Source: Chloroflexota bacterium (GTDB lineage Bacteria > Chloroflexota > Dehalococcoidia > UBA2979). From it: a stretch of 32,332 nt of DNA. The translations under genes and the position numbers were made by a program. Below are positions 3,179 through 28,319 of this stretch, in pieces. The stretch is taken from positions 1-32,332 of the forward strand of contig JAQCIU010000035.1 in NCBI GenBank assembly GCA_027593235.1. The letters run 5' to 3'. Under the pieces are notes generated by a model. It saw only the letters and a list, made by a program, of their open reading frames with translations. It ran no database searches and had not been told where the DNA came from. Numbering within the stretch: position 1 is the stretch's first letter; each line of letters begins with the position of its first letter.

Positions 3179-4345
<1,167 letters not shown>

Positions 4346-15456: not shown

Positions 15457-16158
15457 CTACGCGCCCGTCGGGAGTGCGTACGCCACCGTCTCCACGCACC
15501 CCGCGTCATCGTTCTTCACCGAGTTCACCCGAGGCGAAACCGGCGTCGCGATCAGCGCGTCGTTCGGCTCCGCTCCCAGGAACGCCCGCACCGCGTCCAT
15601 GTCCTCGTTGCCCTGGAAGAGCCAGTCGTCGATGCCGTCCGAGGGCAGCACGACCGGTATCCGGTCGTGGATCGGGCGTACGAGGTCGTTCGGCTCGGTC
15701 GTGATGATGGTGAACGTCCGCCGCCACTCGTCCGTCGAGGGCTGCCAGGACTCGTAGAGCCCCGCGAGCAGGAAGACCGAGTGATCTGGGCGGTGGAACC
15801 ACACCGGCTACCGCGCTTCTTTCGGCCCGACCCACTCGAAGAAACCGTCCACCGGCACCGCGCAGCGTCGGTGTTGCTTCCAGGCGCTCCGGAACGCCGG
15901 TCGCTTGTCGATCGTCTCGGCCCGCGCGTTGATCTGCTTGAACGCGCTCTTCGCGTCCTTCGACCCGAACGGCACCAGCCCCCACTTCGCCGGGAGCAGC
16001 TCGCGTTCTTCGCGCTTCAAGCGCAGCACCCAGTGCTGGTCCGTCGGCGCCACGTTCCAGCGCGGGCGATAGTCCGGGGTCACCTGCTCCTCGGGAACGC
16101 CAAGCGCCAGCGCTAGTCGCTGCGTGTTCGTCTCCGTGAGCGTGAATCGACCGCACAT
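15457..16158 (-). pseudogene. SOS response-associated peptidase (SRAP/YedK) with one in-frame TAG at 15808-15810
   Basis: MCGRF, WGLVP, INARAET, GFFEW, then R-*-PVWF in the same frame, then FTIITT, IHDRIPV, VSPRVNS. 233 codons if read through. Confidence 0.85.
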
Positions 16159-16222: not shown

Positions 16223-17638
16223 CTACCCGATCCGCACCGACCCGCGCGCAAGCCGGTACCGCGTCACCGGCCGATCCGGGATCGATAGCGCGATGTACAT
16301 CGGCCCCAGCCGCCCCACGAACATCAGCCCGATGATCACCAGCGCTCCCGCGTTCGTCAGATTCGGCGTGACGCTTTGCGACCAGCCCACGTTGCCGAAC
16401 GCCGAGGTCACCTCGAACAGCGCCGGCAGGAACTCGACGTTGTCCGTCAGCTCCAGCAGCCAGACACCGGCACCCAGCGTGAAGAAACCAATCATCGTGA
16501 TCGCCACCGCCCGCAGCACGATCGATTCCGGGATCTACCGGCCGAACGCCGTCGCCGTGCGCCGCCCGCGCAACGCCGAGAGCACCACCACCATCGCCAC
16601 CATGAACGACCCGACCTTGATCCCGCTCGCCGTCGAGGTAGATGCGCCACCAACGAACATGAACAGCAGCAGCGCCGCGGCAGTCGCGTCGTCCAGCCGC
16701 GCCATATCGACGCTCGCCATTCCCGTCGTCCGCGCGTTCACCGAGAGGAAGAACGAGTTCGTGAGCTGGTCCAGCCGCCCGAGGTCTGTCAGCACGCCGC
16801 CGCTCCGTGTCTCCTCGACGAGCAGCAACAACATCCCCGCCAGGAGGAATCCGAACATCCCGATCGCCGTCAGCCGCGTATCCAGGCTCCATCGCCGGAA
16901 CGGCATCCGCAGGTTGAACGCGGTAACGAACGACAGCGATCCCAGGAACGCAGAGACACCAAGCACCAGTAGCAGGAACGGCGCATCCACCTCACCAATG
17001 AAGCTCTGGCCGCCTCCCTGCAGATCGAAGCCCGCGTTGTTGAACGCGGAGATCGAGACGAACAGCGCCTTCCACAGCCCCGCAGCGCCGTCCCCATGGG
17101 TCATGAACCAGGGTGCCACCAGCAGGAACGTCACCGCTTCGACGCCGAAGCTGTAGAGCAGGACGCGTCGCATCAGCCGCGCAAGGTCGTGCTCGGTCAC
17201 GTCGGAAAGCTCCATGCTGAAGAAGTCACGGCCGCGCATCCCAAACCGACCGCCGACCAACAGCAGCAGCGCCCCTGCGTACATCGTCACCCCAAGCCCG
17301 CCGGCCTGAATCAGTACCGCGATCACCGCCTCGCCGAACCCGCTCCAATGCTCCGCGCTATCGAACCGCGTCAGCCCCGTCACGCAGACCGCCGACGTCG
17401 AGGTGAAGAGCGCGTCGATCGGACCGGTCCACTCGCGGCGTTCGGACGACACCGGGAGCATCAGCAACAGCCCGCCAAACAGCGTCACCACGGCCCATGT
17501 CGCTGGGATCATCCACGGACGAGGGCGAATCGAGAACGCGCGCCGCTGCCGCGCGAGCGCAACCACCTCGTGCCGCATCCGCGCCCGGCGGACCCGAACA
17601 TTCCCGATGCGGCACGGTGGTGGTGGGGACGAGGTCAC
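16223..17638 (-). pseudogene. trkH: TrkH/KtrB potassium uptake membrane subunit with one in-frame TAG at 16535-16537
   Basis: Four pore motifs (SAVCVTGL, SAFNNAGF, NARTTGM, SAFGNVG), STASGIK, MFVGRLGP. Frame continues as FGR-*-IPESIVLRA. Confidence 0.85.
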
Positions 17639-25740: not shown

Positions 25741-26337
25741 TCAGGCGTCCCGCGCGCGATCGTTCGCCGGCAGCAGGTCGCGCATGTGCTCGGACCGCTT
25801 CCAGTCCGCGATCGGCGTCTCGTGCTGCGTGTCTGGTGCGTGCTTCGACTGCTCCACCATCTCCATCTTGTGGATATACCGAGGGCAGTTGAACAGGATC
25901 TCGCGCGCTCGTACCCGCACCACGAATTGCGCCTCCGGGAACTCCGAGGTCAGCGGATCATCGAAGTCGATCGACGCCTCCCCGTTCACCCGCAGCCGCG
26001 ACTGCCGCTCGAAATCGATGAACAGCATCCCCACCTCGCCCGTCTGCGAGATGTTCCCCATCGACAAGAACATCCCGTTGCCGTCGTAGCTGGGGAATGC
26101 CAGCGTGTCCGGAGCCACCACCCGTACGAAGCCCGGAACGCCGCCCTTGTACGAGCAGTTCAGGTGCCCCTGCGCGTCGACCGTCGACAGAAAGAACATC
26201 GGCAAACGCTCAACCGTCTCGCGGTCCGCGTCGGTGAATTCCCCGTGCACGATCCGGTCTTCGAGGGCATCCGCTAGCCGCCGCGTATCGAAGCGATCCT
26301 GCAGCGATCGCTGGCTGTCGTGAAAGAGTTCTGACAT
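25741..26337 (-). CDS. Pyridoxamine 5'-phosphate oxidase-like FMN-binding protein
   Basis: CSYKGG.PGFV, FPSYDGNGMFLSMGNI, LFIDF..RLRVNG, NCPRYIH; GAGGAGG SD. Confidence 0.88.
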   Translation of the reverse strand: MSELFHDSQRSLQDRFDTRRLADALEDRIVHGEFTDADRETVERLPMFFLSTVDAQGHLNCSYKGGVPGFVRVVAPDTLAFPSYDGNGMFLSMGNISQTGEVGMLFIDFERQSRLRVNGEASIDFDDPLTSEFPEAQFVVRVRAREILFNCPRYIHKMEMVEQSKHAPDTQHETPIADWKRSEHMRDLLPANDRARDA

Positions 26338-26382: not shown

Positions 26383-26443
26383 CGGAGCCCGGTGCGGCGC
26401 ACTTCCGGTCGGAGCCCGGTGCGGCGCGTTTCCAGTTGGAGCC
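26383..26443. repeat. 27-bp direct repeat (about 2.3 copies) in a divergent promoter region
   Basis: CGGAGCCCGGTGCGGCGC at 26383 and 26410, each followed by a TTCC(G/A)GT tail; partial third copy TGGAGCC at 26437. Confidence 0.8.
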
Positions 26444-26502: not shown

Positions 26503-27459
26503 ATGACCATCGCCCCCGATCGCGCCATCGAGGTCACCGGCCTCCGCAAGCGCTACGGCGACTTCGAGGCCGTGCGTGGCATCGACTTCCACGTCGATCG
26601 CGCCGAGGTCTTCGCCTTGCTCGGCCCCAACGGCGCGGGCAAGACCACCACCGTCGAAATCCTCGAGGGCCACCGCGATCGCGACGGTGGCACCGTCAAC
26701 GTCCTCGGATACGACCCCCACTCCGGCGGTTCGCGCTTTCGCGAGCGGATCGGCATCGTCCTCCAGTCCACCGGCGTCGAGCCGTACCTCACCGTCGAGG
26801 AGACGCTCCGCCAGTTCCGGGGCTTCTACCCCCACCCCCGACCGCTGGACGAAATCCTCGAGGTCGTTGGGCTCACCGCGCAGCGCGCCACCCGCGTCCG
26901 CCGCCTCTCCGGCGGCCAACAACGACGCCTCGATGTCGCGGTCGGCCTCGCCGGCGATCCAGATCTGCTCTTCCTCGACGAGCCGACCACCGGCTTCGAT
27001 CCCGCCGCCCGCCGCCAGGCCTGGGAACTCGTCCACAACCTCAAGGCGCTCGGCAAAACCGTTCTGCTCACCACCCACTACATGGACGAAGCGCAACAGC
27101 TAGCGGACCGGCTCGCCATCATCGTCGCTGGCTCCATCGTCGCCGAGGGCACCCCCGCCGAGTTGATGAGCCGCGACCACCTCTCGACCATCGAGTTCAA
27201 ACAGACGCCCGCTGCGACCGCCCTCATCGCCGGTGTCTCCGGTGAGGTCGCGCTCGGCGACGGCCTGGTCTCGGTCCGCACGAGCGAGCCAACGCGCGCC
27301 CTCGCCATGATCGCCGGTCGCGCCGAAGAGCGCGGCATCGAGTTGGAAGATCTCTCCGTTACCCGCGCCACTTTGGAGGACGTCTACCTCCAGCTCGCCG
27401 CCGATCCGGCCACCACGCCTGCCGATCTGGCGGCCCCTGCCGCGGGAGCGGCATCGTGA
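26503..27459 (+). CDS. ABC-2 type exporter ATP-binding subunit
   Basis: Walker A GPNGAGKT, LSGGQ, LFLDEPTTG, TTHY. Confidence 0.95.
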   Translation: MTIAPDRAIEVTGLRKRYGDFEAVRGIDFHVDRAEVFALLGPNGAGKTTTVEILEGHRDRDGGTVNVLGYDPHSGGSRFRERIGIVLQSTGVEPYLTVEETLRQFRGFYPHPRPLDEILEVVGLTAQRATRVRRLSGGQQRRLDVAVGLAGDPDLLFLDEPTTGFDPAARRQAWELVHNLKALGKTVLLTTHYMDEAQQLADRLAIIVAGSIVAEGTPAELMSRDHLSTIEFKQTPAATALIAGVSGEVALGDGLVSVRTSEPTRALAMIAGRAEERGIELEDLSVTRATLEDVYLQLAADPATTPADLAAPAAGAAS

Positions 27460-27546
27460 CGGCTCCTGCCGCGGGAGCGGCATCGTGACGGCTCCTGCCG
27501 CGGGAGCGGCATCGTGACGGCTCCCGCCGCCGGAGCGGCACTGTGA
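27431..27546 (+). repeat. 29-bp tandem repeat x4 spanning the ATPase stop and permease start
   Basis: Units at 27431, 27460, 27489 and 27518; consensus CGGCTCCTGCCGCGGGAGCGGCATCGTGA. Confidence 0.95.
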
Positions 27547-28319
27547 CCGCGCTCCGTCTCGGCCTGCGCCAGGTCCGCTATGAGGCCGTCGCGTTCGTAC
27601 GCAACCCCGCCGCCGCCTTCTTCACCTTCGTCTTCCCGCTCATCTTCCTGGTGATCTTCAACCTGCTGTTCGGCAACCAGGAACTCGTCCTCCCCGGTGG
27701 CACCACCAACGTCTCCACCTTCTACGTGCCGGCCATCGCCGCGCTCTCCGTGATCAACGCCTGCTACACCGGGCTGGCGATGAGCATGTCCGTCTCGCGT
27801 GACCTCGGGCTGCTCAAACGGCTCCGAGGCACCCCGCTGCCGGCCGCCTCGTTCCTGCTCGGGCGGGTGCTCTTCATGACCGTCGTCGCGCTCGCACTGG
27901 TCGCCATCGTGACGCTCTTCGGCGCCCTCTTCTATGGCGTCGACATCCCCACCAACACCCTCCCCGCCTTCGTCATCTCGCTCGCCATCGGTGCCGCCGC
28001 CTTCTCATTGCTCGGGCTCGCCATCACCACGTTCATCCCCAACGCGGATGCCGCGCCTGCCGTGGTTAACGCTTCTATCCTCCCCCTGCTCTTCATCTCC
28101 GACGTGTTCATTCGCATCGAGGACGATGGACCCGGCTGGCTCGGCTTCGTCGGCGATCTGTTCCCGGTGAAGCATCTCTCTCTTGCGCTCCAGACCGCCT
28201 TTAATCCCTTCGAAACCGGGAGCGGCTTCGAACCAGCGCACCTCGGGATCATCGCGCTCTGGGGCCTCGTGGGCGCGCTGATCGCCGCACGCCGCTTCAG
28301 CTGGGAACCGCGCGTCTAG
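27543..28319 (+). CDS. ABC-2 type exporter permease
   Basis: RNPAAAFFTFVFP, RDLGLLKRLRGTP, about 6 TM helices, FSWEP C-terminus. Confidence 0.93.
   Translation: MTALRLGLRQVRYEAVAFVRNPAAAFFTFVFPLIFLVIFNLLFGNQELVLPGGTTNVSTFYVPAIAALSVINACYTGLAMSMSVSRDLGLLKRLRGTPLPAASFLLGRVLFMTVVALALVAIVTLFGALFYGVDIPTNTLPAFVISLAIGAAAFSLLGLAITTFIPNADAAPAVVNASILPLLFISDVFIRIEDDGPGWLGFVGDLFPVKHLSLALQTAFNPFETGSGFEPAHLGIIALWGLVGALIAARRFSWEPRV

Follow-up and report, generated by a model that had tools for sequence, protein, structure and literature searches.

The window analysed here, a 32,332-nt stretch of DNA with a high G+C content (0.65–0.73), carried two adjacent and co-directional genes for an ABC transporter, both of which had their best protein matches in Chloroflexota/Dehalococcoidia MAGs. 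The first gene, at 26503..27459 on the plus strand, encoded a DrrA/NodI-like ATP-binding subunit of 318 aa when read from ATG 26503, the same length as the window's own ATPase in the protein database (P0123). It contained a Pfam ABC_tran domain (5.3e-27) and ended in ...AAPAAGAAS, followed by the TGA at 27457–59 that closed an ORF of 355 codons. No SD-like motif was visible 5' of ATG 26503. The second gene, at 27543..28319 on the plus strand, encoded an ABC-2 type permease of 258 aa (Pfam ABC2_membrane, 1.3e-22). Its start, GTG 27543, was the first start codon in the permease frame 3' of the TGA of the second repeat unit described below, and fitted the N-termini of the homologues, which were mostly 257–258 aa long and opened with M-x-x-L-x-L-x-L-R-Q; judged by this comparison, it is the correct permease start.

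The pairing of an ABC_tran ATPase with an adjacent, co-directional ABC2_membrane permease is that of the DrrAB/NodIJ-type ABC-2 exporters, but both proteins scored below the curated NCBIfam cut-offs, with 251 bits against 312 for drrA (TIGR01188) and 43 bits against 223 for drrB (TIGR01247). Membership of the DrrA and DrrB subfamilies was rejected on these scores, with the two Pfam domains standing, and the gene pair is therefore referred to as a DrrAB-like exporter.

A divergent region of 165 bp preceded ATG 26503 and was bordered on its other side by a minus-strand ORF of 199 aa (25741–26337) with AGGAGG before its ATG. This region held a direct repeat (27-bp unit, 2.3 copies) at 26383–26443, which could be an operator or another product of slippage.

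A 29-bp tandem array at the gene junction

The space between the two genes was occupied by a tandem array of four 29-bp units at 27431..27546 on the plus strand (27431–59, 27460–88, 27489–517 and 27518–46), the first of which was formed by the last 29 nt of the ATPase gene. In this one assembly, Tandem Repeats Finder placed the array at 27431–27547, with a period of 29, 4.0 copies, 94% matches, no indels and a score of 199. The distance from the ATPase stop to the permease start was +83 nt, the result of exactly three extra units (87 bp). Units 2 and 3 were identical, unit 1 differed at unit position 5, and unit 4 differed at unit positions 8, 14, 24 and 25. An earlier reading made from the sequence alone (the sequence-only reading) had taken the difference of copies 1 and 4 from copies 2 and 3 as an argument against a pure assembly duplication, and the presence of at least three distinct unit variants upholds it. 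Since unit 4 has diverged at 4 of its 29 positions, the first duplication is not very recent, and an array that has persisted could be under selection, while the identity of units 2 and 3 points to a later amplification event.

With up to three mismatches allowed, the consensus unit matched the window three times, always inside the array, against 0.00 matches expected from 100 shuffles; unit 4, having four mismatches, falls outside this count. The unit occurred neither elsewhere in the 32.3-kb window nor in 80 related loci. A dispersed element was ruled out by this confinement to one site, together with the homology of the unit to a native gene end.

Every unit contained GGAG, 7 nt and GTGA. 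The SD-like GGAG of unit 1 lay at 27445..27448 on the plus strand, 7 nt before GTG 27456, and those of units 2, 3 and 4 lay at 27474–77, 27503–06 and 27532–35 on the same strand. The ATPase TGA overlapped GTG 27456 and the resulting GTGA opened a mini-ORF of 10 codons plus stop (27456..27488, VTAPAAGAAS*), whose stop overlapped the start of a second mini-ORF of the same length and sequence (27485..27517). The stop of the second in turn overlapped the start of a third (27514..27546, 10 codons plus stop, VTAPAAGAAL*), and the stop of the third overlapped the permease GTG 27543. All three are on the plus strand, and their initiator GTG would be read as M. The four GTGA joints (27456–59, 27485–88, 27514–17 and 27543–46) thus had the 4-nt overlap of coupled gene pairs throughout. 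The motif spacing, the overlap of the ATPase stop with GTG 27456 and the chain leading to the permease start had been described in the sequence-only reading, and each was recovered in all units and at the same coordinates; the coordinates also place the three mini-ORFs in three different frames, as it had stated.

The same reading had proposed that the coupling geometry survives any copy number, and this follows from the unit itself. Because the unit holds an SD, a GTG and a TGA, and because 29 leaves a remainder of 2 on division by three (29 + 1 being divisible by 3), each extra copy automatically yields a coupled 10-codon ORF. All whole-number changes in copy number preserve the chain, each GTG sharing its frame with the TGA one unit further on, and duplications of arbitrary length would satisfy this frame condition by chance in one third of cases. 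As the chain follows automatically from the duplication of a coupled junction, its existence provides no evidence of selection, function or design. The substitutions among the units were the sole internal test of selection at hand. All five left GGAG and GTGA intact, with a chance probability of (21/29)^5, or ∼0.20, and three of the five fell at synonymous third positions in the reading frame of the unit (P for at least three of five ∼0.21). Both patterns would follow if either relay or peptide were important, and neither is significant. Two minus-strand ORFs crossing the array (27100–27483 and 27359–27541) failed the GC3 coding screen and were discarded.

The junction in related genomes

For comparison, 36 permease homologues were aligned, and 80 loci, out of at least 572 that matched, were taken from species-representative genomes. 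The ATPase gene lay directly upstream in 79 of the 80, the remaining locus (L051) being cut by a contig end. These loci represent orthologous junctions from Chloroflexota and Actinomycetota, and the nearest relative (P0004, with a permease 95% identical) was not among them.

The ATPase stop and the permease start overlapped by 4 nt (RTGA) in 72 of the 79 loci, as GTGA in 37, ATGA in 34 and TTGA in one. Other spacings were −1 (TGATG) in L002, 0 in L073, +2 in L059 and +46 in L009. In L004, L010 and L069, RTGA was present at the aligned permease start, but the in-frame extension of the ATPase ended elsewhere, a mismatch that may be due to a frameshift or an HSP artefact. An SD-like 4-mer was found at −18 to −4 in 66 of the 79 orthologous junctions, compared to 670 of 4266 control windows (15.7%). 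The prevalence of the −4 spacing and the enrichment in SD-like motifs indicate that the ancestral and nearly universal state of this junction is a single SD followed by RTGA, with the two genes coupled. The pair in the window, with its gap of 83 nt, would look uncoupled in an annotation, although coupling is nearly universal in the family.

A comparison of this kind had been proposed together with the relay, and its outcome was divided. The coupled −4 overlap of the ATPase/permease pair proved to be widely conserved, but the array was absent from all 79 junctions, none of which carried a repeat containing the stop and start or any of the mini-ORFs. Seven Tandem Repeats Finder rows lay within 30 nt of a junction, in five loci, and all were short or imperfect. 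A 29-bp repeat of 2.0 copies in L057 was 2.8 kb from the junction and unrelated. Among nearer relatives, the permeases P0005 (89% identity) and P0008 (85%) exceeded the usual 258-aa form at the N-terminus, by 4 and 14 residues respectively, which suggests that the junction may have been remodelled in these relatives as well.

Origin of the repeat unit

The 3' half of the unit resembled the corresponding junction of L010, with 17 of 18 bases alike across GTGA, and the ATPase of L010 ended in ...SGAAS*, similar to the ...AGAAS* of the window. On this similarity, the unit derives from the native end of the gene rather than from an inserted element. The ATPase tail that follows the conserved LEDVYL was of low complexity and hypervariable, ranging from 7 to 35 aa (median 13) in 72 loci, with 22 aa in the window. 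In L039 and L050, imperfect repeats of 14–17 bp occurred in the ATPase tail right up to the junction. Such variability, and the tail repeats in these two loci, indicate that the region is prone to slippage.

In the same two loci, at about 3905–4001 of each, the tails were 34–35 residues long and closed with an arginine run (...RGRRRRRRGGS), and imperfect repeats of 14, 17 and 33 bp extended as far as the GTGA junction. The ATPase tails of L026 and L078 were likewise rich in arginine.

Strong tandem arrays (score ≥90, period ≥15) numbered three in the 32.3-kb window and five in 635 kb of related loci, a density about 12 times higher in the window (Poisson P ∼0.002), although the sampling of the loci is biased and one of the window arrays lies at the contig end. 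The simplest origin of the junction array is an amplification of the slippage type in a repeat-prone lineage, which the quasi-palindromic nature of the unit may have helped.

The array at the contig end (1–198) consisted of 5.5 copies of a 36-bp unit with 94% matches and a score of 352, and was located upstream of a GGDEF/NIT/HAMP sensor gene. Its units shared the 9-mer CGGAGCCCG with those of the 27-bp repeat at 26383–26443, and CGGAGCCCG occurred nine times in the window, always on the plus strand, compared to 1.83 occurrences expected.

A second relay at a junction of the same family

The sole long-gap junction among the 79 loci belonged to L009, a Dehalococcoidia MAG with 75% permease identity. 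Its ATPase TGA (3952–54, in the numbering of that locus) overlapped an ATG at 3951, which opened an ORF of 16 codons unlike the mini-ORFs of the window. The TGA of this ORF (3999–4001) overlapped a permease ATG at 3998 (−4) or 4001 (−1), so that the gap of 46 nt was bridged. There was no SD-like 4-mer before the permease start. A relay of this type arose by chance in 3% of trials when length, ends and spacer were random, and in 62% of shuffles when ends and length were fixed. As a single case, it is suggestive of insertions at the junction surviving when a relay is kept.

The 46-nt spacer of L009 was flanked by a direct repeat, GATGA (3950–54 and 4000–04), a pattern resembling that of a small insertion with duplication of the ATGA junction. 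The insert had no further match in the 80 loci or in the window.

Predicted RNA structure

The sequence-only reading had proposed that each unit can fold into two exclusive hairpins, one of which hides the SD. Both are possible, with energies of −7.8 and −11.6 kcal/mol, but their stability does not exceed that expected from composition: single-unit folds did not gain over shuffled sequence (z of −0.2, −0.66 and +0.54), and a special structure at the level of the single unit was rejected as indistinguishable from composition. Multi-unit folds were more stable than their shuffles, with −34.7 kcal/mol for two units (z −3.0) and −77.9 kcal/mol for the 130-nt array (z −2.5), and long helices between units were predicted wherever two or more were present. 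In the predicted fold of the array, hardly any of SD3 and SD4 was left unpaired (unpaired probability 0.00–0.13, and 0.02–0.13 for the last SD). The unpaired probability of the permease RBS was 0.16 in the window and had a median of 0.32 among the orthologs, and 12 of 72 orthologs without the repeat had values as low or lower, which speaks against an exceptional occlusion of this RBS.

No Rfam family reached its gathering score anywhere in the window, and no terminator-like or promoter-like site was detected between 25900 and 28500; a leader-peptide attenuator, a known RNA family and a terminator were rejected on these grounds.

Comparison with known systems

The closest precedent is provided by the MIRU repeats of mycobacteria, the original description of which is reportedly that of Supply et al. 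in 1997. MIRU units measure 46–101 bp. As with MIRUs, tandem repeats lie here between two genes of an operon, and the ORF of each unit overlaps the stop and the start of its neighbors. MIRUs differ in being dispersed over many loci and apparently mobile, whereas the present unit, of only 29 bp, was confined to one site in 32.3 kb and absent from the 80 loci, and its host was Chloroflexota-like rather than a mycobacterium. The array would work like a MIRU-VNTR but, on the sequence comparison above, it was born in place as a local copy of a gene end. According to a review, MIRUs are short repeats whose insertion hardly disturbs expression of the gene downstream, to which their internal ORF becomes coupled at −4 (PMC12548453). 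The 77-bp unit between senX3 and regX3 is present in two or three copies among BCG strains (PMC9392950; PMC3544749). Outside MIRUs, nothing relevant on a relay of this kind was found in the literature searched, which lacked most subscription journals.

The GTGA joints, with an SD inside the upstream frame in the window as in the 72 orthologs, are those of gene pairs known for termination-reinitiation at ATGA or GTGA (PMC6728339; PMC10666635). Known cases consist of a single joint between two real genes, whereas the array has four joints in series, three of which involve only 10-codon ORFs without independent function.

Short leader ORFs offer a further likeness, since the ORF encloses the SD of the gene that follows and ends in a stop overlapping the start of that gene. 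The synthetic construct built on such a ribosome-delivering ORF is known as the bicistronic design. The leader is a single cistron at the 5' end of the message, whereas the ORFs of the array are repeated and lie between two cistrons. Short upstream ORFs can "deliver" ribosomes, a property exploited in biotechnology and one that removes the dependence on local RNA structure (PMC12548453).

Contingency loci also contain slippage-prone tandem repeats, the copy number of which could alter expression here too. The classic ones, which serve phase variation through simple-sequence repeats, switch the frame or the promoter spacing on and off, whereas the effect of the array would at most be graded, as all frames stay closed and the chain is intact at every copy number.

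Interpretation of the array

The reading considered most probable, at about 0.6, is a lineage-specific amplification in place of a coupled junction, in which the relay of mini-ORFs arose as a by-product and probably keeps the genes coupled. The terminal 29 bp of the ATPase gene would have been amplified from one copy to four, adding 87 bp, and the amplified segment would comprise the end of the hypervariable low-complexity tail, the SD of the permease and the 4-nt RTGA overlap. The relay would then be a by-product of mutation rather than an evolved device, and the peptides would be copies of the ATPase tail without a function of their own. The geometry would keep each stop and the start that follows it at −4, where termination-reinitiation is effective. 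After finishing the ATPase, ribosomes may be handed on in three short steps. Loading of fresh ribosomes may also occur at the individual SDs, which all have the usual spacing, and the inter-unit helices predicted to cover the last SDs (SD3 and SD4) would be melted as the mini-ORFs are translated. Permease output would be expected to be similar to, or somewhat below, that of a single-unit junction, and the amplification would have been nearly neutral.

The cost of a plain spacer can be gauged from published work: coupling of translation was strict in 13 of 14 overlapping pairs tested (PMC6728339), gaps of about 20 nt nearly abolished reinitiation (PMC10666635), and a 38-nt gap in E. coli led to a loss of 80–90% or to complete loss (PMC10666635). 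Because reinitiation needs an overlap or a very short gap, an untranslated gap of 83 nt would uncouple the permease, and the relay geometry would probably explain how an insertion of 87 bp was tolerated in a strongly conserved coupled junction. A working relay would amount to a naturally occurring series of four reinitiation joints, in which the efficiency of reinitiation per step could be measured and the passing of ribosomes by very short ORFs put to the test.

Alternatively, the relay may go unused. The permease would then be initiated independently at the SD and GTG of unit 4, which retains GGAG, 7 nt and GTG, and the mini-ORFs would be silent or irrelevant, the array acting as a structured 83-nt spacer that uncouples the genes. 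How much the SD contributes to coupling differs greatly among tested pairs (PMC6728339), and three successive reinitiations are not known to work, both of which leave room for this alternative. It is nevertheless judged unlikely, given that the very SD it relies on is predicted to lie nearly entirely within helices of the array, and that the −4 junction was kept in 72 of 79 relatives, which argues for coupling being important to the pair. An idle relay would be a neutral product of slippage in a repeat-prone genome, without wider meaning.

Going further than in-place amplification with preserved coupling, the locus might represent the birth in place of a MIRU-like, coupling-preserving minisatellite. 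An RTGA junction with its own SD would form a self-contained amplifiable module, and selection within the family would keep the hand-on of ribosomes across insertions at the junction, a notion to which the unrelated one-step relay of L009 also points. Strains would then differ in copy number, with a graded effect on the permease:ATPase ratio. Taken as a whole, this extended scenario is speculative and improbable, although the array does suggest a route by which repeats of this type arise from an ordinary gene junction.

Another reading would make the array a selected tuning or contingency locus, along the lines of the sequence-only reading: slippage would alter the copy number, and the stepwise loss of ribosomes would set the permease:ATPase ratio. 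ABC-2 exporters are complexes of fixed ratio, which leaves a variable ratio without obvious use. Each unit also has its own SD, and de novo loading could cancel the stepwise loss. The identity of units 2 and 3 would fit recent slippage and the divergence of unit 4 (4/29) persistence, and the substitutions left SD and GTGA untouched, but this sparing was not significant and no array was present at the 79 orthologous junctions examined. The independent relay in L009 is in its favor, and precedents exist in the MIRU between senX3 and regX3, with two versus three copies of 77 bp among BCG strains (PMC9392950), and in the −4 coupling of MIRU ORFs to the gene that follows (PMC12548453). A dependence of permease output on copy number is possible; that selection has shaped the array for this purpose is quite doubtful.

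The copy number could also be an artefact of assembly, the identical middle units having been miscounted and the true number being lower or higher. Tandem repeats are more often collapsed than expanded by assemblers. The window resembles a metagenome contig, its proteins being recorded only on contigs of about 32.5 kb, and begins inside another tandem array. The array at the junction contains an exactly periodic stretch of 89 nt (27436–27524), in which k-mers of up to 60 would recur and make a de Bruijn graph cyclic. The ambiguous stretch is short enough, however, to be spanned by a read of about 100 nt, and the reads must contain the three distinct variants as well as the new joint between units, which implies that at least three units are real. 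A wrong count is therefore viewed as rather unlikely.

Stop codons in the window

Recoding of TGA or TAG, which would undo the reading of the joints as stops and starts, was rejected because the TGA that ends the ATPase coincided precisely with the start of the permease in 72 of the 79 relatives. In the window, 15 of the 24 stop-bounded ORFs from the GC3 screen ended in TAG and eight in TGA, and two of the 15 TAGs were in-frame stops inside the genes for a SRAP peptidase and TrkH. These two neighboring minus-strand genes were each split into two ORFs, by TAG at 15808–15810 and 16535–16537, with the Pfam coverage divided into 1–110 and 118–214 for SRAP and into 39–377 and 417–484 for TrkH. As TAG is a common genuine stop here, both appear to be nonsense mutations or sequencing errors rather than signs of recoding.
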